In this document: positions 7,499 through 63,746 of the stretch, piece after piece | Layout: the number at the start of each line of letters is the position of its first letter | Position numbering within the stretch: the first letter of the stretch is position 1 | Source of the DNA: Escherichia phage vB_EcoM_Goslar | Reading direction: 5' to 3' (one strand) | Length of the DNA: 64,000 nucleotides | Sequence record: NC_048170.1 | Made by a program: the position numbers and the translations under genes | Notes under the pieces: generated by a model | What the model saw: only the letters and a program-made list of their open reading frames with translations | Told to the model about the DNA's origin: nothing | Databases searched by the model: none

Positions 7499-10018
7499 TT
7501 AAATAATCGTGACGTGTTCGTTATATGTTTCAGGGAGAATGATGTTCGTTTTATCAAGAACCATACACTCTGCTTTACGGAACGACGCATGGTTGATAAC
7601 ATAGTGGCTGATGAACCACACCTGACTTACACGGTGACCATCAACCAAACGACGAACAAAATCCATGGCATTAGATTGGTGTTGTGGATCAAATGTTGAT
7701 GCGAATTCATCTAACATCAACGGATAATCCGTAAACCCTTTGTAATGCATCATCGCGATGATAAACGCGATATTGATAATTTCCTTTTGCCCCTTACTCC
7801 CATAAACAATATCTTTTCGCGGTGTCGGATACTTCTCAGTTAAAAGCGGAAAACGATAGTTCAATCCTTGCGCATCGATAGCACATGGGAGTATCTGAAG
7901 TTGGTATTCCCAAATACTCGCAATGATACCATTCATGTATTCGACGAACGCGTTGATTGGACCCGCGATTGTTTCGGCAATCAGTCCGTTAGATGGACTT
8001 AACTCATCCAGAACCAGTTGTGCGTAACTGAGCTGTTCTTCCACCTCTTTTTGTGTCGTTTCCAACTGAGCCAAAAGCTGCTGGTCGGTTTTAGCTTCCT
8101 GTAGTTGTTGTTCGACATGACTTATTCGGCGAACCGTATCAGACATCGCAGCACGTAACGATTTCGTGTAGAGGTGTTGCAGATACTCTAGCCACAGTTG
8201 CGTTAACGCTTTATCGCTGTTATCAGAACGCACCTGATCTTCCATAATCGTCGTAATGGTTTCCAGCCTACCTTCCGTAGCTGTGATGGCTTGTGTTAAC
8301 CGTTCAACGGTAGTCAGCAACTCTGTCCTGTTCTTATAAAGCAATTCTCGACGTTGCTGTAACGGTTCAACATCAACCGCTTGTACACGTTCGAGCATGC
8401 CTTGAAGATGTTTACGTTCCTGTTCGGCTTGTGTGTAACGCGCAAGTTTCTCAAACGCAAGCAACCAATCGTTAATGATGCCAATGCTGCGGAATCCTAA
8501 ACCGTTTTTACGGCCTTCTTCCAGCAGATTGTCCCACATGGGTTTAATGGCGTAATAATCTTTCGTCCAACGTGTTAACTGACGATGCTGTTCCATCCAG
8601 AGCGTATAACGCTGCACCTTCTCATTAAGTTCGGCTAACGATTTCTCTTGTTCTTCAACCCAAGCACGACCCTTCTGAATACGTTGTTCAATACTCGCTT
8701 TGCTGGTCTTTTCTGTTTCACCAACATGAAAGCGATAATTGCATTTTGGACAGCTGGTCTGGGGTTGATGATTCAGGTGGTCAAGATGCGCTTCCAAATC
8801 GGCTAACGCATGTTTCGCGTTACGCAAACGCATTCTTGCCGCCTCTTCCTCCTTGATGTAAGCTTCAGCATCGTAAACATGATAGGTGTTGTCGGTATCA
8901 ATCCATTCTTGGAGTAATTCTGTTAACGGAGCCTGAACTTGCGTGAGCTGCTGTAAACAAACCGCGGCGTCCAGATTCATTGTTAAAAGCTCACCTGGAT
9001 GATCTTGCTGAAGTTGTTCGTCCAAACGTGCGAGACGGGCTTTAATCTGATCGATATCGCCTTCTCCAGACTGTTTCAACTGGTCAAGGATATTATCGAT
9101 ACCCAACAGCTCGTCAACCTGACTTTCGAGTTTCGCATTCGCATTCGCGAGTTGCTCTCTTAGTTCAGCCAGATTCCGCTGTTCTTGTTGCGATGTTCCT
9201 CCTTGGTAACGAACAACCGCATGAAGAAGCTCGCGATTAAAATGATGAGCACGTTGTGCGGATTCCAGAAGCTGTCGTTGATCAACATCACTATCGAATA
9301 ACGGCAATCCCATCATCGCTTCGAGCGCTGAGCGTTGCTGCTTTAACTCTGCTTCCAATCCCTGGTGGTCGGTTCCGGTGTATTTCGCTTCAATGCGCTG
9401 TGATGTTTCAACCAACTTATTCAGTGTATGCTCATTCACCGCTTTCAGTGAACGTACTTGTTGCTTAACAACCTGAAACAACTCAAGCGCATAATCGACG
9501 TTAACCGGACATATCTGCGTTAATCGTTCGCGACGTTTCATTGGCCCCATTTCAGTGAACTGGTAAGCTGTTTCGTAACCTAACAACAAACGAATGGTAT
9601 CGTCATTAAGTTCGAAATGTTCTTCGATCAGTTTCCACTGGGCCGGTTGTGTGCCACCACCATTCAGGTTCTCGCTATCGTTAACGTAGAACTCATGCTT
9701 AAACCCTTTTTCTAAACGACTGATAAGACGGTATTGCTTATTACGGTGTTCGCAGCGGTACTCGTAATACCCGTCTTTATCAAAATCGGCACGCTCAGGA
9801 ACGGTCGGATACAGCAAAGGCAATAGACTACTCTTACCCGAACCATTACTACCTAAAATGAGTTGTACGGGATTATCTGGCCGGATGACCAGCTCCCGAA
9901 TCATCCCGGTATCAAAACGATTGAATCCACGTAAGTGGAGATAGGTGCATCGCATGCTATGATAATCCTTCTTCGATACCTTCTGAACCCGTGGTTCAGA
10001 ATGCGAAGCTGAAGCCAT
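7499..10018 (-). CDS. SbcC/Rad50-like recombination ATPase
   Basis: Walker A LILGSNGSGKSSLL, long heptad-rich central region, CPKC zinc-hook-like motif in the middle, C-terminal LMLDEFAST Walker B/D-loop. Confidence 0.6.
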   Translation of the reverse strand: MASASHSEPRVQKVSKKDYHSMRCTYLHLRGFNRFDTGMIRELVIRPDNPVQLILGSNGSGKSSLLPLLYPTVPERADFDKDGYYEYRCEHRNKQYRLISRLEKGFKHEFYVNDSENLNGGGTQPAQWKLIEEHFELNDDTIRLLLGYETAYQFTEMGPMKRRERLTQICPVNVDYALELFQVVKQQVRSLKAVNEHTLNKLVETSQRIEAKYTGTDHQGLEAELKQQRSALEAMMGLPLFDSDVDQRQLLESAQRAHHFNRELLHAVVRYQGGTSQQEQRNLAELREQLANANAKLESQVDELLGIDNILDQLKQSGEGDIDQIKARLARLDEQLQQDHPGELLTMNLDAAVCLQQLTQVQAPLTELLQEWIDTDNTYHVYDAEAYIKEEEAARMRLRNAKHALADLEAHLDHLNHQPQTSCPKCNYRFHVGETEKTSKASIEQRIQKGRAWVEEQEKSLAELNEKVQRYTLWMEQHRQLTRWTKDYYAIKPMWDNLLEEGRKNGLGFRSIGIINDWLLAFEKLARYTQAEQERKHLQGMLERVQAVDVEPLQQRRELLYKNRTELLTTVERLTQAITATEGRLETITTIMEDQVRSDNSDKALTQLWLEYLQHLYTKSLRAAMSDTVRRISHVEQQLQEAKTDQQLLAQLETTQKEVEEQLSYAQLVLDELSPSNGLIAETIAGPINAFVEYMNGIIASIWEYQLQILPCAIDAQGLNYRFPLLTEKYPTPRKDIVYGSKGQKEIINIAFIIAMMHYKGFTDYPLMLDEFASTFDPQHQSNAMDFVRRLVDGHRVSQVWFISHYVINHASFRKAECMVLDKTNIILPETYNEHVTII

Positions 10019-10069
10019 ACTTCAGCGTTATTTTCTATATCGTTATTTAAATCAGTAGGAGATTACAGC

Positions 10070-11158
10070 ATGAGCGATCTGGCAACAGACAATCGCACAA
10101 AAGGGAGTCAGCTAGCTCCAGACAACAACGTAAGCGTTTTCCGTATCTATGCCTTGGGTACTGTTGCTGCCGACTTTTCCAATAAAAGTCTGGAGGAAGA
10201 TCCTAACCAGACGCTGGAGGTCTTTCTTGATGAGATGATGTCAGGCGCTGATGGGAAAGTTGAAGCGGCGGGAAGCGTTAAAGAAGTCAGTGCAACAGAC
10301 GCTCAAGGGAACAGTTATACGGCGAAAGCGGCAACAACAACCAGCGTACAGTGTTATTGGTTACCTTTCGGCAGTAACCGGATGACAGCACCTAACTTGA
10401 GGAAAGGTCAGCGTGTGGTGGTCTGGCGTACCGCCGATGAAGAACAACTCTACTGGCAACCCAAAGGAGGGGATAGTGAGTTGATGACCATGGAATCGGT
10501 TATCCTCACCGTCAGCGCACGTCCTAGCGCTAAGAAGGACCGTAAATCGATTTCAACGGAAGACTGCTATTACCTAATGGTTGATACCTTCCTCAAGAAA
10601 GCGGTTATCGGCACCAGCGCACAGCTTGGTGAAGTTACCCAAGTTTACATGGAACTTAATCTGGACGAGGGTTACCTACAGGTTGCGGACAGCGTCCATC
10701 AAAATCTGCTGTTACTCCATTTCGTTGAACATATGCTACGTTATCAAAACCAGGACGACAGCATCATCGACGTGACAAAAAAGAACATCACATTCCAGTG
10801 CGAGGATACGCTCAAAGCAATCGCTAAGAACGATATCCGAATGAAAGCAAAAAACATTTATACCGAATGTGAGAACTTCGAACGTACCAGCAAAACAGAA
10901 AGCGTTACGAGCCAGAATGTTTCTTTGAAGTGTGATCGTTACACGGCGCAAGTATCAGGACAGACCACGTTTAAATGTCCGAATACGGTATTCACTGGAG
11001 CTGTAAGCTTCACAGGTGAAGACGGAAACACGATGACGTTGAATGGGAACTTCATACACGTCGCAGGCTCTTGGCGTTCACCAACCGGAACAAACGTATA
11101 CACCCACGATCACGGTGGTGTAGATCGTGGTAGTGGTCGTACAGACCCGTTCCAATAA
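10070..11158 (+). CDS. possible baseplate central spike protein (gpV/gp5-like OB-fold)
   Basis: YWLPF...GQRVVVW...YWQPKGG resembles the gpV/VgrG OB-fold signature; C-terminal THDHGG could be a metal-binding HxH tip; AGGAG SD; low certainty. Confidence 0.3.
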   Translation: MSDLATDNRTKGSQLAPDNNVSVFRIYALGTVAADFSNKSLEEDPNQTLEVFLDEMMSGADGKVEAAGSVKEVSATDAQGNSYTAKAATTTSVQCYWLPFGSNRMTAPNLRKGQRVVVWRTADEEQLYWQPKGGDSELMTMESVILTVSARPSAKKDRKSISTEDCYYLMVDTFLKKAVIGTSAQLGEVTQVYMELNLDEGYLQVADSVHQNLLLLHFVEHMLRYQNQDDSIIDVTKKNITFQCEDTLKAIAKNDIRMKAKNIYTECENFERTSKTESVTSQNVSLKCDRYTAQVSGQTTFKCPNTVFTGAVSFTGEDGNTMTLNGNFIHVAGSWRSPTGTNVYTHDHGGVDRGSGRTDPFQ

Positions 11159-15777: not shown

Positions 15778-15810
15778 CCTTCCTCCAACCCAACAGGGAA
15801 GGAGGAAGGG
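15778..15810 (-). terminator. conserved intergenic stem-loop terminator
   Basis: ccttcctcc-aa-ccc-aaca-ggg-aa-ggaggaagg directly after the stop of 15826..16719; minus-sense hairpin followed by UUUAUGUUUG. Confidence 0.6.
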
Positions 15811-26350: not shown

Positions 26351-26381
26351 GATGCGCCCTTTACAAGTTGTTAGTAAGTAT

Positions 26382-26400
26382 GGGATACCCTGGGGTATCC
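26382..26400. promoter_or_regulatory. palindromic operator-like site in a divergent intergenic region
   Basis: GGATACC-ctgg-GGTATCC between the divergent starts at 26350 and 26455. Confidence 0.3.
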
Positions 26401-26454
26401 TGTGTTAACAGCGGTAAAATATTACTGTAACTATAAAATAAGGGGGCCTCTCCC

Positions 26455-27735
26455 ATGTATACATTGGTAAAAACTTACGGGTTACCCGTAGGTTCTGGCA
26501 CGGCCTGGACAGCGCTTGAGGCGGGTGAAAGTGTCCTGAGTACGTTGTTCTCAACGTATCAAAAACTCAAGATCCAGGTCCACGAAAGCTATGCTGACCA
26601 GCAACAAGTTATTGATCTGTACACATTTCAATCCGAGCTTCAAAACAGCAGCGATACGCTCAATGCGTGGTTGAAAGCGAAATCGGATGCGCATACCAAC
26701 CTTCGAGGACAGCCTGGCGAGCTGTCGATTAAAACCCACAAGCTTTATTGTCACGACGCTATTACTGTAGGCTTTCTCCCTAAAGTCGGTAATAGTGGCT
26801 ATCATCCGAGCAACGCGATCCCTGAGTCGGAACGCACTGATATCCTGTTGACGAAAGCGAATACGAATTACGAAAATATCGGCAAACACTGCTTGTTCAC
26901 CGTAGGCGGTTATGTTCATCCTCACGTCTACGGTAAAGACGTCGGTGTCTATATCCAGGGTGGGTTCAAGACGGCACAGCGCAGCCAAGAAAACGATATC
27001 GGCATGATTGATTTTAGCCGTATCGGGAGTTTGGAAATCCATGCTATCACAGAAGAGATGATTGCTGATTCCACGAAGCTCTTGCCGTATAAGGACGAGA
27101 TGTACTTGCGGTTACCGCGCAAGGTCGCCGAAGATGAAACCGTCGCGCTGGTGTTCGGGGGATATTTACATCTTCTTGACGATTGTTACACGATCGTTAG
27201 CGACACGACAGCGAAAATAAACTGCATTAACATGTTTCTCTATGAACGGTACTTCCGTTCCCGTAAATACCTTGATCTAACATCTCTTGGTATTCTGTTG
27301 AACGAAGAAGACCCACAGTCCGACATTGTTGCCAATCGTTTATTGTCCGATAAAGCATTAAAAGCGTGGGTGACGCATCCTTGCAGTTTCTGGGTGTATA
27401 TCAAAGCAACATCAATTCAGGTTACGCAAGAACCTTTACCACGAAGCGGTGTACCGGGACAGTATTTCTTAGGTAAGAAACCGGAAGGATTGATTCGGGC
27501 CGATCTCGGTGAGTTACCCGCTTACGTGCAGACCTATGAAAAACCGTTATGGGTACTTCACTCGCGCTGGGGACTTCGTAAGAACATGTTGTTTGAAAAT
27601 ACGTTGTACAAACATACGCGCGTTAAGCGACTTAACGATACGCCTTATCTTCACCAGGTCTGGTTGGAAACGCATGCGACGTTGCAGACAGTACACAAGC
27701 TCGAATTGATCGATTCCAGTCAGAAAAACAAATAA
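26455..27735 (+). CDS. hypothetical protein (divergent from the fibre gene)
   Basis: 426-aa ORF, ATG with AAGGGGG SD; upstream TATAAAATA-containing AT-rich stretch. Confidence 0.5.
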   Translation: MYTLVKTYGLPVGSGTAWTALEAGESVLSTLFSTYQKLKIQVHESYADQQQVIDLYTFQSELQNSSDTLNAWLKAKSDAHTNLRGQPGELSIKTHKLYCHDAITVGFLPKVGNSGYHPSNAIPESERTDILLTKANTNYENIGKHCLFTVGGYVHPHVYGKDVGVYIQGGFKTAQRSQENDIGMIDFSRIGSLEIHAITEEMIADSTKLLPYKDEMYLRLPRKVAEDETVALVFGGYLHLLDDCYTIVSDTTAKINCINMFLYERYFRSRKYLDLTSLGILLNEEDPQSDIVANRLLSDKALKAWVTHPCSFWVYIKATSIQVTQEPLPRSGVPGQYFLGKKPEGLIRADLGELPAYVQTYEKPLWVLHSRWGLRKNMLFENTLYKHTRVKRLNDTPYLHQVWLETHATLQTVHKLELIDSSQKNK

Positions 27736-27745
27736 CCAAACATAA

Positions 27746-27777
27746 CCCTCCTCCAACCCGTAAGGGAAGGAGGAGGG
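27746..27777 (-). terminator. conserved intergenic stem-loop terminator
   Basis: ccctcctcc-aa-ccc-gtaa-ggg-aa-ggaggaggg; minus-sense hairpin followed by UUAUGUUUGG; sits between convergent genes. Confidence 0.6.
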
Positions 27778-31465: not shown

Positions 31466-33877
31466 TTAAGCGTCCTCGATAGGCAAAGGTTTAACAATCA
31501 AACGATTGAGCGGATTCGATAGACGCATACTGATAGGCTTATACGCAACATGATTCGTCTCACTTAGAGCCACTGATCTGAAACGACCGTTCAACTGTTT
31601 GTAAATCGGCTCTATCCAGAGACCTTGAAGATCGCGTTTACGGAAACGTTGTTCGAACGGTTTGATCGGGGTTACGGTCAACCCACGCAACGACTCTGAT
31701 GGCAGACGTTCACGAAGGTCGCGCGGTGCCCGACCTGGGAACGGCGCAAGCCACAACCCGTCAAGCGGATTTTTACGGAAACGTAACGAGATAGGATCAC
31801 TGATGACTTGTGCCCAATATTGCGTACTGAATCGAACGGTTTGGGTGTTCTCGTAACCACTACAATCACACCAGGTTGGTTTCGGAGGCGCTTCCAAACT
31901 TTCAACCGCTGATTCACGCCAGTTCGTCATCGGGTTGTTATCATGCACGAATTTGATAACTTCCGTAGCCTGGTTATCCGTATCATGAACGTTTGCCTGT
32001 GCCCAGTCTTCCCACAGTTCTTCACTACCACTTACTAAACTCGAACCAAGACGGACGGCAATTTTGTTTAGTGGTTTGATTGGATCACTGTTGATTGTCT
32101 GGATAAAATGGATGGTGTAACTGCTCAATGTCTTAAGCAGCTGCAGCATTCCGTATTGAATATCCTTAAGACTGGTGACATCTTCCAAATCTTGACCGGT
32201 GGCCTTTGTGAAGATATCGAGAGCCAGAATTCCCGCCTCTTCTTGACTGATTGCGTCAAGCTCCCAATCCATCGCTAAGAACCATTCCTTGTAAAGCTGC
32301 CCAATACCGAAGTCGACACCAACATCCATGTAAAAGTTTTCAACGATGGCTTCAGCCATACCTCGAGCTTGATAATGCTCTTGGAGCTGGTACATGAACT
32401 GATGACGACGCCAGCCCTGGTAGATCTCGGTAACGGCGGTCAGAAACTCTTCAGTACTGACGACAGCACGCAGCGTCACTTGTTTATCCAAACACCACCA
32501 GATCAGTTTATCGGGAATGATAGCAGGATCGGTAATGCTACGGAGATGGTCGAATGTCGGTAGCGTTAACACCCTGACATGGTTAGCATGGATCTTAGGT
32601 ACTTCAATCAGCGTCATGCCCATCGAATAGTTCAGCAAATACAAGAACAGCTTGTATGCATCTTTCATCGACATCGTCATGGTATCACCCGTCACCGGGT
32701 TGGTTGTCGTTAACCGTGACTGATACATGCCTATTGCGCTAAGATGAATCCATTCATTCAGCAGGAAATCATACTTAGGATACAATTCACTGTCTGTAAG
32801 GTCTTCGGCTTCACTTTCCAACACCTTGGTCGTTAAGGTATTGTTGTCGTGCATCGACATCTTCTCTATCGTGCGGTTAAGCTCGGTATAATACTCCGCT
32901 TCGTTATCCCGCGCTAAAGGGAACTGTTGCTGCATCACGGTGGTGACCTTACGTCTTACCGTGCCATTACCGACGATCTCTTGAAGGTTAAGCGGTTTAC
33001 GCTCCATGTAAACTGCGGGTTTTAACGTTTGGGGTATCTCGGAAGCGTCTTGTTTGATCGAGAACGCACCGATTGGAATCCCACGATCGGTTAATACCTT
33101 TTGAATGAGCTTATCGTAGTTTTCCGTCCTACCCATGTTTCGTTCAACGTAAGCGATGTTACGATAGAACCAGAGCATTTGGGATTCGGTCATGTATCGC
33201 TTGAATCGATCGAGACCTTGATGGCTTGCCAGATAACTCCAGATATGGAAGCTATGGGCATAATGGGTATGACAGTTTTCCCAACGAATACCTTTTATCA
33301 TCTCAGGTATTTGTGTGAATAGAATGGCGTATAGCGCAGGCCAATGAAGCATATCGACGCTCTCATATGCCGGATGTTCCCAGCGTCTGAAGTAATCGTC
33401 GATTTCTTGCTGTAAACGTGGAATAAGATTGGCCTCGCGTGACTCAACCTCTTGTGTATCGTACCAGAGAATCTCGTGATTGCGGGCTGCAATTGCTTTC
33501 TCGATATCGATGGGGTTAAGGATACCCAAGATCAACATACGTTGTTCCGGGTACCGCGCAATTAAACGATTGAAATAATCTCCACCATACGCGTATTCCC
33601 TTGCCGTCATGCGATGCCGTAACATGTTTTCCTTGGTGAACTCGATCTCTTCGAGCGTATCCAGGGAATTTACGGTCATCATTGTCTGACAAGGATGATA
33701 CTCGCCAGCGAGATTCATGTAGTATAACCACGTGCGTGGGTCGTCCCCGACGGCCATCTGGTAGACTTCGGAAACCTTGAGGTTTAACCGTTCTGCCGTG
33801 ATGTCGCTTTTAATAATCAGGGTGTCCGTTAGACGCTGCACGCTTTCCGAATAAAGCTGATAGTCAGTGTTGGACAC
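31466..33877 (-). CDS. large hypothetical protein with C-terminal triple repeat
   Basis: Track ORF starts at TTG 33946; GTG at 33875-33877 has GGAGGA 7 nt upstream; C-terminus has three copies of RFRK(N/R)xLxGLW(L/I)xP. Confidence 0.45.
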   Translation of the reverse strand: MSNTDYQLYSESVQRLTDTLIIKSDITAERLNLKVSEVYQMAVGDDPRTWLYYMNLAGEYHPCQTMMTVNSLDTLEEIEFTKENMLRHRMTAREYAYGGDYFNRLIARYPEQRMLILGILNPIDIEKAIAARNHEILWYDTQEVESREANLIPRLQQEIDDYFRRWEHPAYESVDMLHWPALYAILFTQIPEMIKGIRWENCHTHYAHSFHIWSYLASHQGLDRFKRYMTESQMLWFYRNIAYVERNMGRTENYDKLIQKVLTDRGIPIGAFSIKQDASEIPQTLKPAVYMERKPLNLQEIVGNGTVRRKVTTVMQQQFPLARDNEAEYYTELNRTIEKMSMHDNNTLTTKVLESEAEDLTDSELYPKYDFLLNEWIHLSAIGMYQSRLTTTNPVTGDTMTMSMKDAYKLFLYLLNYSMGMTLIEVPKIHANHVRVLTLPTFDHLRSITDPAIIPDKLIWWCLDKQVTLRAVVSTEEFLTAVTEIYQGWRRHQFMYQLQEHYQARGMAEAIVENFYMDVGVDFGIGQLYKEWFLAMDWELDAISQEEAGILALDIFTKATGQDLEDVTSLKDIQYGMLQLLKTLSSYTIHFIQTINSDPIKPLNKIAVRLGSSLVSGSEELWEDWAQANVHDTDNQATEVIKFVHDNNPMTNWRESAVESLEAPPKPTWCDCSGYENTQTVRFSTQYWAQVISDPISLRFRKNPLDGLWLAPFPGRAPRDLRERLPSESLRGLTVTPIKPFEQRFRKRDLQGLWIEPIYKQLNGRFRSVALSETNHVAYKPISMRLSNPLNRLIVKPLPIEDA

Positions 33878-33904
33878 GATCGGTCCTCCAAGGAGCCAGT
33901 GTAA

Positions 33905-36814
33905 ATGAACGATATAAATAAAGGGCGCGTCGCCCTCGAACGTCAAATGAGCAATAATGACGTTGCGAAGGCACTCATGAACAAATTTGTCGCTCCTGCT
34001 CCGCAGTCACGTCTTTATAACACACGTGATGCGGAAGGAGCGAACGGTCGTTTCGGGTTAGTTGTTCCCGACCAAATGACGATGAACACGGTTACGCGTG
34101 CGACCGCGACAAACATCGAGGATAATAAAAACATCCTCGAGTTGTTCCCTGAACTTAAACGCGTGATGCAGATCTATGTTGCCGCGTTGACGAACCCTAA
34201 CGATCTTAAGACGGTCGAGATGTTTATCGACAGCGAAGATTTCCCCGGCAGAGTCGCAGAAATCGTTCAGCCGATGATCGATACCATCGACACGCATTTT
34301 AAGAATATCTATAAAATAAAGACGCTTATCCCTCGTATCATCGAAGACGTCTTCTTTATCAAGGGCAGTTATAACTTCGTTGTTCTGCCAGAAAGCACGC
34401 TCGACCGCGCCATTAATGGTAACGGTCAACTGAAACTTGAAGAATACGGTTTTAAAGACAACCATTTTGCAAGCTGGGGACTTTTAGGTAACGACAGTCG
34501 CAAACGCCACGAAAATCAATTACCTGCGACGGTTTCGATGGAAGATTATTTCTCAGGCGTTAATGAAACCATACCGTACGATCCTGTTGTTCGCATAGAC
34601 AGCATTAAATTTACCAATACCCTGCTTCGTGATAAGGACGGTAAATTCATTGAAGCGAAGATCGATATTCCGGATATGGTTACGGTTGTCGATAACCCGG
34701 ATATCCTCCGCATGCCTATTCTGCATCAACGTCGAGCAGCGACAGCAGTGCAGCGTGCGTTACGTGCAAACACGTTAGGAGGTAGTGGTTTGGTAACGCT
34801 GTCAGGTGATCCGACCCTAACCGCTAACCGACGTGAGCTGACGCAAGAGCAGGTTAACGAGATCTGGAATAAACTCAACATCCAGCGTCACACCAAGGTA
34901 TCTCCCGTTTACGCGTTGGCAACCCCAGATACACTCGATCGTCAAAGCGTCGGTCATCCTGGTGTGATGCACGTACCACCTGAGGCATTAGAACCTGTAC
35001 ATGCGCCGGGTGATCCGGAGAACCATATCGGATATTTGGTTCAGTTGGATGAGTTTGGTTATCCGGTGCGTTTGGTTGAAGATGCTGCGTATTACAAGCA
35101 GTTGGAAGGTCGGTTGTCGAAGATCACTGCAGATATCGCGGGCACGTCAAGCAACGGCATGGCGAGCGAGATGATTGGTGCAGCCAAGAACATGATCCAA
35201 GGTACGTCATGTAATCAGGTAGACATGTCGGCCTTCGTATCGTCGTACGAATCGCTGATGCAACGTTACATTGTCGAACGTATCGTTAACGGTTATCTTG
35301 GCAGTGCGGTGGAGATCGGTGCGACATCATCGTTTTATCTGTCGATGCTTGCCCGTAGCCTCGCTCACAAGCAGACCCGTGTTTTGTTTATTCCTCGAGA
35401 GATGGTGACTTACATCGCCTATGAATACAACAAATACGGTATCGGTCGTTCGCTGCTTGAAAGTACGAAGATGATCTCGTCGCAACGAGCCATGCTCATG
35501 GTTCAAGAACTGATGGCAAAAATCAAAAGTTCGTTGAACTATACGACGCTAAGCGTAATGCTTGAAGACACCGACAGAAACCCGGTCGATACCGTCGAAC
35601 AAGCACTGCATAGTTTCGCTCGTGTCTACCAGTCTGGTTTCCCGTTGGGTGAAACTAACCCGATGGATATCATCAACGCGTATGAACGAAGCTCGATTCG
35701 ATTGAAGGTTGAGGGGAATAACCCACGCTTCCCGAAATTGAATACAGACGTCAGTGTTGAGCAGCGTAACTATCAGTCTCCTGATAATGAGCTGATGGAT
35801 CGTTACCGTCGTGACCATTTCATGGGCTTGGGTGTGTCTCCGGAGATTATCGATACTTCCTACCAATCTGAATTCGCAGCTTCTGTGATTACAGCTAACG
35901 CGATGCAAGAGAAACAGTTCACGGTTTGTCGTGAGGTGATCACGAATGGATTATCGGACCACATCAAGAAATATACGGCATACAGTCCCGTGTTGTTGAC
36001 GTCGTTACGAAACACGGTTCGTGCGAACATGTCTAAGCTTTCCCAGGCACAATTGAAGCAGCTTTTTGGTAGCGATTTCGAAAACGGTGTTATCCGTAAC
36101 GTTAACGCCTATCAGGAGATTGACGACCAATCAGCAACAATGGATCTGGATTACACTAAACCAGAAGTCCAGGAAGTTATTGCCGATGCTTATGTGTCCA
36201 TGTTCTTAAACAGCCTGCGTGTGCGTTTACCGGATAGCAATGCTCGTCGCCTTGAAGATCAGGTACGTGAATATAATCAGTACAAGGAAGCGATTACTGC
36301 GCAACTTGATGATTATTTAACGCCTGATTACGTCATGGGTCTGGGTGGGGTTGATGAAACAACGCTGCAGATGATCCGCGCATGCATTATTGGTACCGCG
36401 ATGCGTACGTGGGCAAAAGAGAACAACTTCAATCAGGAGCTGGCTGATCTCTTCAGTCTTGACGATAAGAAGAATGCCGTGCAAGATTGGAAACGTATGT
36501 CCATGGAACATATTGAAGTCATGGGTAAATGCATGGGTGATTTTGCATTGTATATTCAGAATCTGACGAAGAAGATTGAAGAGAAGATGGGAGCTCAAGC
36601 ACAGGACGGTAGCGTTTCATCTGATGGTTCGTGGTCATCCGATTCAAGTAGCGATACCGGTTCTTCTGATGACTTCGGTGGCGGTGACGATTTCGGAGAT
36701 ACCGATTTCGATACCGAAACGATGGAGGAAACCTCAACAGAAGAAACAACCACATCTGAGGAAACGACTACCGACACAACGTCAGAAGACGACACTTCAG
36801 GTGGCGTTGTCTAA
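33905..36814 (+). CDS. large hypothetical virion-type protein with acidic S/T/D/E-rich C-terminal tail (portal is one guess)
   Basis: 969-aa ORF, ATG with AAGGAG SD; C-terminal ~70 aa low-complexity acidic (SSDSSSDTGSSDDFGGGDDFGDTDFDTE...). Confidence 0.45.
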   Translation: MNDINKGRVALERQMSNNDVAKALMNKFVAPAPQSRLYNTRDAEGANGRFGLVVPDQMTMNTVTRATATNIEDNKNILELFPELKRVMQIYVAALTNPNDLKTVEMFIDSEDFPGRVAEIVQPMIDTIDTHFKNIYKIKTLIPRIIEDVFFIKGSYNFVVLPESTLDRAINGNGQLKLEEYGFKDNHFASWGLLGNDSRKRHENQLPATVSMEDYFSGVNETIPYDPVVRIDSIKFTNTLLRDKDGKFIEAKIDIPDMVTVVDNPDILRMPILHQRRAATAVQRALRANTLGGSGLVTLSGDPTLTANRRELTQEQVNEIWNKLNIQRHTKVSPVYALATPDTLDRQSVGHPGVMHVPPEALEPVHAPGDPENHIGYLVQLDEFGYPVRLVEDAAYYKQLEGRLSKITADIAGTSSNGMASEMIGAAKNMIQGTSCNQVDMSAFVSSYESLMQRYIVERIVNGYLGSAVEIGATSSFYLSMLARSLAHKQTRVLFIPREMVTYIAYEYNKYGIGRSLLESTKMISSQRAMLMVQELMAKIKSSLNYTTLSVMLEDTDRNPVDTVEQALHSFARVYQSGFPLGETNPMDIINAYERSSIRLKVEGNNPRFPKLNTDVSVEQRNYQSPDNELMDRYRRDHFMGLGVSPEIIDTSYQSEFAASVITANAMQEKQFTVCREVITNGLSDHIKKYTAYSPVLLTSLRNTVRANMSKLSQAQLKQLFGSDFENGVIRNVNAYQEIDDQSATMDLDYTKPEVQEVIADAYVSMFLNSLRVRLPDSNARRLEDQVREYNQYKEAITAQLDDYLTPDYVMGLGGVDETTLQMIRACIIGTAMRTWAKENNFNQELADLFSLDDKKNAVQDWKRMSMEHIEVMGKCMGDFALYIQNLTKKIEEKMGAQAQDGSVSSDGSWSSDSSSDTGSSDDFGGGDDFGDTDFDTETMEETSTEETTTSEETTTDTTSEDDTSGGVV

Positions 36815-36845
36815 ACGGATATAAAAAAAAATAACACATAGTTAA

Positions 36846-36880
36846 CCTTCTCCCCAACCCGATGAGGGAAGGGGAGAAGG
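36846..36880 (-). terminator. conserved intergenic stem-loop terminator (variant loop GATGA)
   Basis: ccttctcccc-aa-ccc-gatga-ggg-aa-ggggagaagg between convergent genes; stem changes are compensatory. Confidence 0.55.
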
Positions 36881-36897: not shown

Positions 36898-37173
36898 TTA
36901 TTTCGAGGTTAACCACGATTCAATTGTGGTGAGTTTGCTTCTCAGTACGCGCCAACTAGGGTGTGGTGGGATCACAGCGCCATTGTCGATTACGGTTAGC
37001 TGAACCTGGTACTTCTGTTGCATACGTGCTACCGTGTCGCTTATCGAGAGGAAAAGCTGGTAACGTTCATATGCCGTCAGTTCACTGTCCTGTTGAACTG
37101 CGTTGGCTGCTAACGTAATTTCGCGTAAGTCCTTTGCATCCACAGAGACGGTAATGAGTTTATATTGACTCAT
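36898..37173 (-). CDS. hypothetical small protein
   Basis: 91-aa ORF, SD AAGGAAA. Confidence 0.45.
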   Translation of the reverse strand: MSQYKLITVSVDAKDLREITLAANAVQQDSELTAYERYQLFLSISDTVARMQQKYQVQLTVIDNGAVIPPHPSWRVLRSKLTTIESWLTSK

Positions 37174-43274: not shown

Positions 43275-43309
43275 ATTTTTTCTATTCGCAACGATAAACG
43301 GCATAGAAA

Positions 43310-48106: not shown

Positions 48107-48138
48107 CCCTCCTCCAACCCGTAAGGGAAGGAGGAGGG
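48107..48138 (-). terminator. conserved intergenic stem-loop terminator
   Basis: ccctcctcc-aa-ccc-gtaa-ggg-aa-ggaggaggg; on the minus strand followed within ~10 nt by a U9 tract; between convergent genes. Confidence 0.6.
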
Positions 48139-49775: not shown

Positions 49776-49807
49776 CCCTCTCCCAACCCGTAAGGGAAGG
49801 GAGAGGG
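49776..49807 (-). terminator. conserved intergenic stem-loop terminator
   Basis: ccctctccc-aa-ccc-gtaa-ggg-aa-gggagaggg; compensatory stem changes relative to other copies; followed by CUUAUGCUG. Confidence 0.6.
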
Positions 49808-58100: not shown

Positions 58101-58494
58101 TCTTCGGCTCCTCGCCAGGTGCGGTCGGTACCGCGATCAGAACGAACGGCTGAACGTCGTTACCGTCTTCCATGGTTACGCCGCCGTTGCTTGGCGTGAA
58201 ACGGATTCGCAAACTACCATCGATAGGACGGGTCACAATAACAGCACGTACGACATCCTCGCCGTTTTCATCTGTGCTACGAATCACGCGAACAGCGTCA
58301 TCAACGGTAGCCCCTTCCTCGAGCGTATCTGATTCGATCGTCGCTTCGATGCTGTCTGGCCGTGCCGCTGTAGGTAATGCGATCACTTGCTCTTCTTTAT
58401 CAGTAGAAAGCGTTGCTTTGACTTCGATAGGTGTATCGCCGCTTTCCAGGTTAAGATGCGACTTACGCATCAGATCAGCTAACGATTTTTTCAT
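55117..58494 (-). CDS. large hypothetical virion-type protein with acidic low-complexity region
   Basis: 1125 aa; central Thr/Glu/Asp/Ala-rich disordered segment including DDDEDDENEEDEDL; internally duplicated ~80-aa unit (ESFEIR motifs). Confidence 0.5.
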   Translation of the reverse strand: MKKSLADLMRKSHLNLESGDTPIEVKATLSTDKEEQVIALPTAARPDSIEATIESDTLEEGATVDDAVRVIRSTDENGEDVVRAVIVTRPIDGSLRIRFTPSNGGVTMEDGNDVQPFVLIAVPTAPGEEPKNPYPANAPTETPAPKVTNDPTVNADRDNLKNKIQDAANAIDPTNPAQIEQAAQPAETTEGVKGNVVEPEKAEPVAETAAAAAEVTPETKTTEEPIKVTVIKRVVEKVEKVEDTVADEQPVVDANDGNTGEQKAEAVAQETELQGDVDVDNADETPAEDGTTEPASEEPTNTDADAAATNTTTTEGNENTKGDDDEDDENEEDEDLKQESFEIRQELEARGVLDVPVVEQRASVILGEGEADVTVIETEQPYIPGTMVVRRLDGDKSVIVRRTRYAERFNADGQGEAIAIIDPTLQGELKMEFRPAEGPMESFEIRPEIKDEYIMESYKQLDVALNSDLNLEDGEKQPGRFKQILKSVYEAVAKFLKAIVARLRKLFGVSKKKIDEKADKLTKEQRTTPVMKLLPPPSDTKKVDVEWNKLDTLLANDAKSVDKIVNAVKDSKRIAEASRKFFDQLKNLKEGESPNADSDMLTATTMSGVAAFGHTADAALDGIRKFRDELSAMKQQDDAVPSNVSVDMLIDASTKLFDEDLLKAATQLQETAERLIRDIDKSGSDYDVGYIVKRTRTLMNFATTACTVYGFTAKELGDVTVRILTAVAAADNGDLKQEEYQDVAGENDPVVTIETLEGDAGTRAVAEAEIVDDPAVVEFVERAEEAQRNLAIGRHAVSAVEGILVAAREIGPDNFQGNVEATEIAMEGFMDTVKSAVNRIGNWIETNHRYYTAATAPWDKLFAETQQALAKARRGNPAAERIILKRFIRHLTIGGEPVTDVKKLIAALGEIKMLGNMTRELIVAIDRELSEVRKSNQSETSAGSVVGLKRIPIQKWDKLMVATVQPWKDSDRKGVGSKAYLGETHIVKVSATYATTRNNPNEEAAKLMQWIYTGINRQFTVSDDLTSEELPVATISELEAVLRAAREAHEAWLIADNAMQTLRSIDKFLDSELNVENDVNNVVNYGIVLGLEDWLFHPALTLWQQFNKPMQAVLFLIKAHCGAYK

Positions 58495-58509
58495 AAAGCG
58501 TTATTCCTC

Positions 58510-59616
58510 TTAAAAGTAATATTTCAGCGCCTCGCGAGAGACATCAAGCATAGCCGCTGTTGAATTCGTAAAGAACTCGGCATAGCCCACAAGCGGCACC
58601 TTGATCCACGCGGTATACGCTGTAAGGTATCGAGAAAGGGCTACCATAGCATCATCAGAAGCAGTAGTAACTGACAACTGACCTTGTTGACGATAAACGT
58701 CGTTAAGTTTTGCTTGTAGATTCCCTGCGATTTCGAGTAACTCGTTGGCGTACTTTTTACGATGGTAACTAACCAGCAAATCAACACCCGTATTTACAGA
58801 CTCGAGTAGAAGACCAACTTGTTCTAATGTTGGCATTGTAACCACCATATCCCGTTCAACGGATGGGACATCCTGGACTTCAAACCGTGCGGATTGAATG
58901 GCGAGGGACTGTTGAATTGATCCAGAACCTGAAGCGGTAACTTGATCGAGTCGTAGCATACGGTTGCCCAGTAACGTCACGTTGACGAGTTTCGATTCGT
59001 TCAGCGTACTGTAGACTTTATGCAATAACGTATACGCATCACGGTTAATCACATCGATTAATGCGGTATCCGTCTGTTTTAAGATAATGTCGAGTGCTCT
59101 ATCTAACGTATTAGCGAACTGCTTAAAATCATCACGGAACGACGAAGACAAGAGATATTCAGCGATCGCTAAATTCTGTTTGTATAACGTATTCCCGGTT
59201 GTGAAATCGAACCCAAAACTGTTCCCATACCGTAGGTGCGGAGCCAACGTCGACGAAGCTTCGAAGCTTTGCGCGATAGGTTTACGACCAACGGCTTTTG
59301 TGTAGTGACGGCGGATGTTGCTGAGTTCGAGCTGTAGTGCGCGACTACGATCGATAAACCGTGCGATAAACGCGGTAATGTTCCGCAACGTTGTCCAGAT
59401 TGCATCGATGATAGCTTTGATGATCTTCATCGCAAGTTGATCGTACGATTCCATTGTGAGGAGATCAGCACTTTCCGTGGTATAACTGGTTGATAGCATA
59501 CCACCCGCTTGCTGATAAATAAGCTGGTGAATTTGTCGTTGCGTTGCTGTCTCTGGCACAGGTAATGTTTTTAACAAGCTTAACGCTTGAATCTGTCCAT
59601 CATTGGTCTGCAGCAT
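58510..59616 (-). CDS. paralog family B protein (tandem array member)
   Basis: Track ORF 58510..59667; ATG at 59614-59616 has SD TGAGGAA; shares the helical core LTMESYDQLAMKIIKAIIDAIW with the three downstream ORFs. Confidence 0.45.
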   Translation of the reverse strand: MLQTNDGQIQALSLLKTLPVPETATQRQIHQLIYQQAGGMLSTSYTTESADLLTMESYDQLAMKIIKAIIDAIWTTLRNITAFIARFIDRSRALQLELSNIRRHYTKAVGRKPIAQSFEASSTLAPHLRYGNSFGFDFTTGNTLYKQNLAIAEYLLSSSFRDDFKQFANTLDRALDIILKQTDTALIDVINRDAYTLLHKVYSTLNESKLVNVTLLGNRMLRLDQVTASGSGSIQQSLAIQSARFEVQDVPSVERDMVVTMPTLEQVGLLLESVNTGVDLLVSYHRKKYANELLEIAGNLQAKLNDVYRQQGQLSVTTASDDAMVALSRYLTAYTAWIKVPLVGYAEFFTNSTAAMLDVSREALKYYF

Positions 59617-61008: not shown

Positions 61009-61041
61009 CCTTCCTCCAACCCGTAAGGGAAGGAGGAAGGG
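61009..61041 (-). terminator. conserved intergenic stem-loop terminator
   Basis: ccttcctcc-aa-ccc-gtaa-ggg-aa-ggaggaagg; minus-sense followed by UUUUAUGGCG. Confidence 0.6.
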
Positions 61042-63714: not shown

Positions 63715-63746
63715 CCCTCTCCCAACCCGTGAGGGAAGGGAGAGGG
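63715..63746 (-). terminator. conserved intergenic stem-loop terminator (GTGA loop)
   Basis: ccctctccc-aa-ccc-gtga-ggg-aa-gggagaggg; minus-sense followed by UUCUAUGCCG. Confidence 0.6.

Follow-up and report, generated by a model that had tools for sequence, protein, structure and literature searches.

Two long genes of the jumbo phage Goslar point away from each other with scarcely any DNA between them, which raises the question of what the two genes are, where they start and where their promoters could lie. Goslar infects E. coli and is a nucleus-forming member of the Chimalliviridae; the window that we analysed is a 64,000-nt stretch of its genome. A sequence-only reading had placed the starts at GTG 33877 on the minus strand and ATG 33905 on the plus strand, 27 nt apart, with the Shine-Dalgarno (SD) sequences GGAGGA and AAGGAG on opposite strands of one short stretch. 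Both statements hold: the protein sequences deposited in the PDB start at these codons, and the two SDs directly adjoin each other. The features of the junction are as follows.

33878-33904, no single strand: head-to-head junction between the start codons, exactly 27 nt
33884-33889, minus strand: SD GGAGGA of gp35 (TCCTCC on the plus strand), 6 nt before GTG 33877
33890-33895, plus strand: SD AAGGAG of gp36, 9 nt before ATG 33905-33907

The triplet CAC at 33875-33877 is the minus-strand GTG and is in frame with the open reading frame 31466..33946. The abutting SDs form a contiguous 12-mer, TCCTCCAAGGAG, which occurs only once in the window, and the 27 nt hold the two back-to-back ribosome-binding sites with their spacers and nothing else. 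A 4-nt SD core was found 4-18 nt upstream in 32 of the 58 listed starts, compared with 6.3% of random 15-nt windows, and SDs are present at starts more often than chance would give.

Judged by their sequences, the plus-strand gene is the already annotated and structurally solved portal gene gp36, and the minus-strand gene is the baseplate-wedge gene gp35.

33905-36814, plus strand: gp36, portal protein of 969 aa, assigned from PDB, PHROG and homology; the sole plus-strand gene of its block
36674-36811, plus strand: acidic, Ser/Thr-rich C-terminal tail of the portal, residues 924-969, beyond the modelled crown domain (model end at 921-923)
31466-33877, minus strand: gp35, upper baseplate-wedge protein of 803 aa with a GTG start, assigned from PDB, PHROG and homology
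31469-32092, minus strand: C-terminal tail of gp35, residues 596-803, with repeats at 699-797; not in the 36za_sR sequence, which ends at 595

Residues 1-969 of gp36 are 100% identical to PDB 11ed_J, deposited as “Portal Protein gp36”, and residues 5-921 are likewise 100% identical to PDB 36za_o8, which is present in 12 chains. The protein also matched phrog_3004 (E 4.8e-161) and phiKZ gp129 (9xpe_M; E 2.1e-76). As the mark of a chimallivirus portal we took homology, over most of the length, to a portal that is structurally established, and gp36 shows such homology. A tblastn search gave matches in 287 phage records, some of which carry a portal annotation. The Goslar cryo-EM paper (bioRxiv 10.64898/2026.04.21.720040) identifies gp36 as the portal and models its residues 5-923; it describes the portal as a dodecamer with wing, stem, clip and crown domains that sits as a ring at the unique vertex of the capsid. 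The acidic tail in which the plus-strand protein had been said to end was readily recognised, with 20 D/E, no K/R and 26 S/T among the last 60 residues. A strongly acidic portal tail is present in 12 of the 13 chimalliviruses compared; the tail of SA002 is mixed (16 D/E, 14 K/R).

The evidence for gp35 is of the same kind. Residues 1-803 are 100% identical to PDB 11lx_Bh, and residues 1-595 are 100% identical to PDB 36za_sR (6 chains). The protein matched phrog_3222 (E 5.8e-211) and phiKZ gp128 (9xqs_C; E 4.2e-111, query residues 5-619), and its homology extends across the alpha-helical N- and C-terminal domains that define a wedge protein of the gp128 type. In the phiKZ atlas, gp128 is a wedge protein, the wedge being a heterotrimer of gp128 and two copies of gp87; the Goslar cryo-EM paper places gp35 in the upper wedge. 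Both genes agree with the deposited gp35 and gp36 (PDB 11ed, 11lx, 36za) in sequence and in start codon, without any difference in the proteins. The wedge gene is the first gene of the minus-strand run gp35-gp31, and the portal gene is a one-gene inversion within a block of structural genes on the opposite (minus) strand.

Several lines of evidence fix the two start codons. For the portal gene, the in-frame codon immediately before the ATG, at 33902-33904, is the stop TAA, so that no start further upstream is possible. The cryo-EM model of the portal runs from residue 5 on, which lends independent support to ATG 33905. For gp35, the sequence-only reading had itself named a contrary outcome, a start at the upstream TTG 33946, which would replace the 27-nt gap with a 42-nt gene overlap. 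The reading frame is open that far, and TTG is a permitted start codon. However, no SD precedes this TTG, and it is not present in L009 and L010, relatives with 61-63% identity, whose 23 open upstream codons contain no start of any kind. The tblastn alignments of homologues start at residues 1-3 of the GTG form, and phiKZ, DT01, Eowyn, FLC9, FBKp24 and LucasX all have a stop 1-9 codons before the aligned wedge start. In addition, the deposited gp35 sequence and the 36za chain begin with MSNT(DYQ), which corresponds to the GTG form. A gp35 start at TTG 33946 is extremely improbable.

The junction had also been read as a local curiosity, a view that did not survive comparison with relatives, since the layout joins two known structural genes and is family-wide. 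The portal and wedge genes stand head to head, with gaps of 27-66 nt, in 18 of 18 chimallivirus genomes or contigs, this count comprising those with usable start-codon calls. Xoo-sp14 was left out of the gap count because a small ORF annotated between the wedge and portal genes makes its junction ambiguous. The gap is exactly 27 nt in Goslar and in relatives whose wedge proteins are 97%, 63% and 61% identical; it measures 28-66 nt in AH06, DT01, LucasX, phiKZ, FLC9, Proteus phage 10, Eowyn, SA002, FLC1-1B and FBKp24, and in four metagenomic contigs. The remaining five divergent junctions within the window span 51-142 nt.

The SDs follow the same pattern. TCCTCC, the SD of gp35, is invariant in the alignment of the Goslar clade, which comprises four sequences from only two distinct lineages. 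The SD of gp36 reads GAGGAG in L009 and L010, AGGAGCC recurs in AH06, phiKZ and SA002, and most of the 14 junction sequences compared have an SD-like purine run on each strand. Nearer to Goslar, IMG/VR holds a 237.5-kb contig with an identical portal (100% protein identity); only contigs with an identical portal protein were found there, which leaves no divergence for analysis. A megablast search with the locus gave no match in the phage collection, from which Goslar and its close relatives are apparently absent.

The phiKZ pair gp128/gp129 resembles the Goslar pair closely. The proteins are orthologous and equally oriented, the portal gene stands alone amid structural genes of the opposite strand, and the 35-nt gap carries an SD-like sequence on both strands, as in Goslar. 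In contrast to phiKZ, the Goslar gap is 27 nt with directly abutting SDs, and gp35 extends into a C-terminal tail of 208 residues with LxGLW repeats, which gp128 lacks. Because the layout is common to every relative examined, the compact junction is real but ordinary. The tight head-to-head layout is ancestral and conserved in nucleus-forming jumbo phages and is not peculiar to the Goslar genome. With both genes known and the compaction conserved, there is little novelty here beyond what is already known; for the Goslar annotation, both start codons are confirmed, and the wider importance of this result beyond annotation is small.

The position of the promoters depends on what can enter the two genes from outside. 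Two hairpins flank the portal unit.

27746-27777, no single strand: terminator hairpin closing the nearest upstream plus-strand gene, 26455..27735 (z -4.92)
36846-36880, no single strand: terminator hairpin acting in both directions, where gp36 and the minus-strand gene 36898..37173 converge at their 3' ends (plus strand z -4.93, minus strand z -6.45)

Both are members of a conserved hairpin family with seven copies. We infer that they stop read-in from the closest same-strand genes and leave the portal as a one-gene unit. Since the 27-nt gap is filled by the SDs and the terminators would block read-in, the promoters would have to lie in DNA that codes on the opposite strand, yet not necessarily in the first codons of the partner. 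The claim that both promoters must sit inside the partner's coding sequence is in this sense reasonable but unproven. Taken as a whole, we consider the following reading likely: gp36 and gp35 lie head to head in an ancestral layout, and each would have its own promoter in opposite-strand coding DNA.

By analogy with phiKZ, gp35 and gp36 are presumably transcribed by a multisubunit non-virion RNA polymerase that the phage itself supplies. The late promoters of the phiKZ non-virion RNA polymerase consist of TATG at -3..+1, with no upstream element and no -35/-10 boxes (PMC4666361). Because such promoters are very small, a position within the neighbour's first codons is feasible. The tiny start-site motif of phiKZ is itself absent near the Goslar junction: no TATG lies within 500 nt upstream of the gp35 or gp36 start, and the phiKZ late motif is therefore not applicable here. 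A late promoter of the phiKZ type (TATG, +1 at G) was accordingly rejected for both genes. Across the window, the regions upstream of genes show no enrichment of TATG (13 of 302 sites, p 0.16). In phiKZ the motif is too frequent to be informative; there, gp129 has its closest upstream TATG at a distance of 107 nt. Our literature searches found neither 5'-end data for Goslar nor transcription start sites for PHIKZ128/129. The k-mers enriched upstream of genes reflected mainly general AT-richness and fragments of SDs. Three other genes are preceded by words of the ATATTAC type, which recall AAanTTACc, the middle motif of phiKZ; the portal/wedge junction has no such word.

Upstream of gp35, two adjacent sequences within the portal gene are candidates for a control element.

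33908-33916, minus strand: TATATCGTT in portal codons 2-4, 31 nt ahead of the gp35 start; either a candidate promoter element or the tail of a terminator
33921-33937, minus strand: hairpin GAGGGCG-ACG-CGCCCTT of 7 bp with a U-rich run after it, in portal codons 6-11, terminator-like in the consensus scan

Four exact copies of TATATCGTT occur in the window, and gp35 shares it with two other late structural genes, where it lies at similar distances from the starts. With the pattern TATAT(N1-3)GTT, four of eight sites lie 23-50 nt upstream of same-strand starts, against about 0.25 expected by chance in a test that was post hoc; these starts belong to the baseplate gene 10070, the major head protein 45661, gp35 and the gene at 1776. 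At each non-coding site TATATCGTT is preceded by a hairpin, and no gene starts after a related copy at 36814-36823, so that the element is possibly part of a terminator tail and not a promoter. The candidate upstream of gp35 could equally be such a tail. It is not exactly conserved, as L009 and L010 read TTTATCGCT. The hairpin has seven pairs, five of them G-C, and a 3-nt loop in the consensus scan, and it is present in the MFE and centroid folds. The region around it is no more structured than shuffles (z 0.05), and as read from the alignment L009 and L010 retain only part of the stem, with one compensatory change and one mismatch.

These sequences also bear on the possibility that the junction holds no promoter at all and is simply a pair of ribosome-binding sites, with the gp35-gp31 run and the portal transcribed from distant promoters through long antisense passages. 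The terminator-like hairpin and U-run at 33921-33937 would imply that antisense transcripts cross the portal gene, and a copy of TATATCCGTT just past the terminator at the portal 3' end points antisense into that gene. The absence of TATG near either start agrees with distant promoters, as does the outcome of our motif and k-mer scans, which found no candidate promoter element or recognisable shared motif upstream of gp36. However, the same terminator-like hairpin, placed directly upstream of gp35, would block the read-through that a distant promoter needs, and the similar placement of TATATCGTT upstream of two other late structural genes also speaks against distant promoters. Moreover, the tight junction recurs in all 18 genomes, for which a shared control region is the simplest explanation. 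Transcription of both units from distant promoters is thus an unlikely explanation.

The abutting SDs could alternatively constitute a regulatory device, in which SD-sequestering mini-hairpins or pairing of the mRNA 5' ends couple or limit the translation of portal and wedge. Each leader does hold the complement of the partner's SD beside its own SD, in the MFE and centroid folds the gp35 leader forms small UCCU-AGGA stems and the gp36 leader a comparable one, and the abutting SDs are kept across the Goslar clade. However, two SDs on opposite strands automatically produce an inverted repeat, and the folding energies cannot be told apart from those of shuffles (z 0.05 and -0.02). Elsewhere in the family, the SD spacers vary and the gaps measure 28-66 nt, indicating that no fixed structure is conserved. 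For these reasons we strongly doubt that the paired SDs act as such a device.

Under the preferred reading, gp35 and gp36 would each be transcribed from a promoter of their own in DNA that codes on the other strand, and if the Goslar polymerase is like that of phiKZ, these promoters could fit within the neighbour's first codons. The 5' leaders of the two mRNAs would be short and complementary to each other, and both mRNAs would be translated by host ribosomes from ordinary SD sequences. The most likely control element of gp35 would be the combination of the hairpin, the U-rich run and TATATCGTT in portal codons 2-11, which may stop antisense transcripts through the portal gene, start the gp35 transcript, or do both. 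A stronger proposal is that across the Chimalliviridae the junction, at 27-66 nt, is conserved as a late control region that works in both directions, with each promoter in dual-use DNA within the first 5-20 codons of the partner; this we regard as improbable. If it were true, the codons that serve twice would include, for example, those for the conserved DYxxY of the wedge protein and codons 2-11 of the portal. The mRNAs would have complementary 5' ends, the firing of one promoter would exclude the other, and the arrangement could help to set the portal:wedge ratio (12 and 6 copies in each virion) or to time head assembly relative to that of the baseplate.

Overlapping divergent promoter regions are familiar from phages and bacteria, for example lambda PR/PRM and Tn10 tetA/tetR. 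The Goslar locus would resemble them in that two divergent units would share one short control region, with elements that overlap the 5' end of the other unit. Those systems, however, use sigma-70 promoters and repressor operators in about 80 nt or more of intergenic DNA, whereas the intergenic region in Goslar is too short for any promoter, and we know of no regulator that acts on it. Enclosed between a 27-nt junction and a strong terminator, the portal unit is a clean and small test case for the promoter of the Goslar non-virion RNA polymerase, and the same locus is suited to asking whether a promoter can work from within coding sequence.

The C-terminal tail of gp35 had been described as ending in three RFRKxxLxGLWxxP repeats. 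Two clean copies are indeed present (residues 699-712 and 744-757); the third retains only RFRS (765-768). Further degenerate copies were found in the tail, LRGLTVTP at 730-737 and LNRLIVKP at 790-797. A Pfam search with the repeats returned no family, and in the accessible part of bioRxiv 10.64898/2026.04.21.720040 we found no discussion of the unmodelled gp35 tail, of the gene arrangement or of the promoters. The number of repeats in the tail does not follow that of the DUF7941 paralogues downstream: P0007 has no motifs but at least seven DUF7941 genes. Of 120 gp35 homologues, 40 carry related L[DN]GLxYP or LxGLWxxP motifs in the tail, and these short LxGLW/LDGLxYP repeats, whose copy number is variable, may provide docking sites for parts of the peripheral baseplate, which is still unresolved.

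Both proteins of the divergent pair are already known, annotated and structurally solved. Across 969 residues the plus-strand protein was 100% identical to PDB 11ed_J ('Portal Protein gp36'); it also matched 36za_o8 (12 chains) over residues 5-921 and aligned with gp129, the portal of phiKZ, at E 2.1e-76; an identical portal is encoded on a 237.5-kb IMG/VR contig. The minus-strand protein, taken from GTG 33877, showed 100% identity to 11lx_Bh across 803 residues, matched 36za_sR (6 chains) over residues 1-595 and aligned with phiKZ gp128 at E 4.2e-111. The PHROG families were consistent with portal and baseplate-wedge assignments, and phage Goslar is a member of Chimalliviridae. In the 2026 preprint on the Goslar cryo-EM structure, the portal is gp36, with a wing domain from residue 5, and gp35 lies in the upper baseplate wedge adjoining a gp32 dimer. 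In the phiKZ structural atlas, the wedge protein gp128 and two gp87 form a heterotrimer.

The sequence-only reading had placed the two genes 27 nt apart, with Shine-Dalgarno (SD) sequences on opposite strands of one short stretch, and the junction was as it had been read:

33875-33877, minus strand: GTG start of gp35 (CAC on the plus strand), in frame with the open reading frame 31466..33946
33884-33889, minus strand: gp35 SD, GGAGGA (TCCTCC on the plus strand), 6 nt before GTG
33890-33895, plus strand: gp36 SD, AAGGAG, 9 nt before ATG
33905-33907, plus strand: ATG start of gp36, read from the sequence

The spacer (33878-33904) measures 27 nt, and both SDs form one contiguous 12-mer that occurs a single time in the window. 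In the Goslar genome the SD cores carry real signal: they were found 4-18 nt upstream of 32 of 58 listed starts, versus 6.3% of random windows. For gp36, an in-frame TAA (33902-33904) directly precedes ATG 33905, so the gene has no possible start further upstream; no start codon other than ATG 33905 precedes residue 5, which is visible in the cryo-EM model. For gp35, the deposited sequence starts MSNTDYQ, in agreement with GTG 33877, and tblastn alignments to relatives start at residues 1-3. The GTG is kept in the related loci L009 (63% identical) and L010 (61% identical), where no other start codon was found among the 23 open codons upstream of it. The aligned wedge start is preceded by a stop codon at a distance of 1-9 codons in phiKZ, DT01, Eowyn, FLC9, FBKp24 and LucasX. 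Both start codons as first read are correct. A gp35 start at the upstream TTG 33946, named beforehand as the case against this arrangement, has no SD before it and was ruled out as far as the sequence and structure data allow.

The compact head-to-head layout is conserved in the family and can be seen in the annotated genomes examined. Goslar and the related loci L007, L009 and L010 all have a gap of exactly 27 nt. phiKZ carries the same pair (gp128/gp129) with a gap of 35 nt. The gap measures 28 nt in Proteus phage 10 and FLC1-1B, 31 nt in DT01 and SA002, 32 nt in AH06, 38 nt in Eowyn, 46 nt in LucasX, 64 nt in FBKp24, 66 nt in FLC9, and 48, 48, 28 and 48 nt in four metagenomic contigs. Of the 14 junction sequences compared, most have SD-like purine runs on both strands, and in every locus examined the portal is a single gene oriented opposite to its neighbours. 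Longer gaps separate the genes at other divergent junctions, with 51-142 nt in the Goslar window and ~97 nt in the phiKZ stretch. In Xanthomonas phage Xoo-sp14 (locus L012), GenBank shows a 102-aa hypothetical ORF (1025-1333) between the wedge and portal genes that overlaps the wedge start; because all other genomes examined have both genes directly head-to-head, its portal start was probably mis-called.

The spacer contains the two ribosome-binding sites and nothing else, and any promoter must therefore lie outside it. Read-in from same-strand neighbour genes is unlikely because of strong hairpins at 27746-27777 and 36846-36880, which belong to a conserved family of seven copies:

15778-15809: hairpin
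27746-27777: hairpin closing the nearest upstream plus-strand gene (26455..27735), z -4.9
36846-36880: hairpin at the convergent junction, portal 3' end, strong on both strands (z -4.9 and -6.5)
48107-48138: hairpin
49776-49807: hairpin
61009-61040: hairpin
63715-63746: hairpin

All seven window copies lie between genes and fold on both strands. They share a GC-rich consensus of ~32 nt, CC(C/T)TC(C/T)(C/T)CC-AACCCGTAAGGGAA-GG(A/G)G(A/G)A(G/A)GG, followed by U-rich tails that often start TTATG, and this family probably serves the phage as its standard bidirectional terminator. Near 43300, 3' of the gene for the major head protein, there is a related hairpin.

The filled spacer, together with the unlikely read-in, would place the promoters within the opposite-strand genes. 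The portal promoter would lie on the plus strand within the antisense gp31-gp35 block, and the gp35 promoter on the minus strand within the antisense portal gene. Such positions are compatible with present knowledge of the family; the late promoters of phiKZ have TATG at -3 to +1, without upstream boxes, and are used by the phage non-virion RNA polymerase (PMC4666361). No TATG was present within 500 nt upstream of gp35 or gp36, no shared motif was found upstream of the portal gene, and RNA folding of the two leaders was no better than that of shuffles. Elsewhere in the window, ATATTAC(T) words lie ~20-45 nt from three start codons:

26351-26454: word upstream of the plus-strand gene at 26455
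about 58495-58540: word upstream of the minus-strand gene at 58494
about 2529-2575: word upstream of the minus-strand gene at 2528

These words, which are similar to the middle-promoter motif of phiKZ (AAanTTACc), may represent a different promoter class in Goslar.

On the gp35 side, a candidate element was noted within the portal gene:

33908-33916, minus strand: TATATCGTT, portal codons 2-4, 31 nt upstream of GTG
33921-33937, minus strand: 7-bp hairpin and U-rich run preceding TATATCGTT, portal codons 6-11

The nonamer occurs in four exact copies within the window. Four of eight TATAT(N1-3)GTT sites are located 23-50 nt upstream of same-strand starts, including those of a baseplate gene (10070) and of the gene for the major head protein (45661). 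The element may act as a promoter, form the tail of a terminator or combine both in a terminator-promoter cassette; its reading is ambiguous because a hairpin precedes the motif in all five non-coding copies, no gene start follows the copy at 36814-36823 (minus strand), and L009 and L010 retain the motif only in part. That startless copy, TATATCCGTT, stands directly after the portal 3'-end terminator, antisense into the portal gene, and either belongs to the terminator tail or marks where an antisense transcript through the portal gene begins. A second tight divergent junction (10019-10069, 51 nt), between an SbcC-like gene (7499..10018, minus strand) and the baseplate gene (10070..11158, plus strand), has the layout of the gp35 side: a hairpin over the partner's start codon is followed by a U-rich run and then by TATATCGTT, which lies 26 nt before ATG.

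The acidic tail proposed for the plus-strand protein was borne out: its final 60 residues hold 20 D/E and no K/R. In Goslar the tail follows the modelled crown domain, and 12 of the 13 chimallivirus portals compared have such a C-terminal tail, that of SA002 being mixed in charge. Of the three RFRKxxLxGLWxxP repeats claimed for gp35, two are clean (residues 699-712 and 744-757) and the third is only an RFRS remnant; the tail also carries two degenerate LxxL...P copies. Residues 596-803 (31469-32092, minus strand) are absent from the 36za chain sequence. LxGLWxxP or L[DN]GLxYP motifs were found in the C-terminal tails of 40 of the 120 homologues, only in forms longer than ~780 aa, with up to seven copies and a strict 14-residue period in P0102 and P0103; these two, P0018 and P0049 were noted for their tail repeats. 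No Pfam family matched the gp35 repeats. That this tail serves for docking in the peripheral baseplate is a guess.

Downstream of gp35 on the minus strand, gp34-gp31 are DUF7941/DUF7208 proteins, and the number of repeats did not vary with how many DUF7941 genes lie downstream. Whereas Goslar has the DUF7941 family in these separate genes, the metagenomic wedge homologue P0017 (1310 aa) carries it as a C-terminal fusion (residues 813-938), which could be genuine or an assembly or frameshift artefact.
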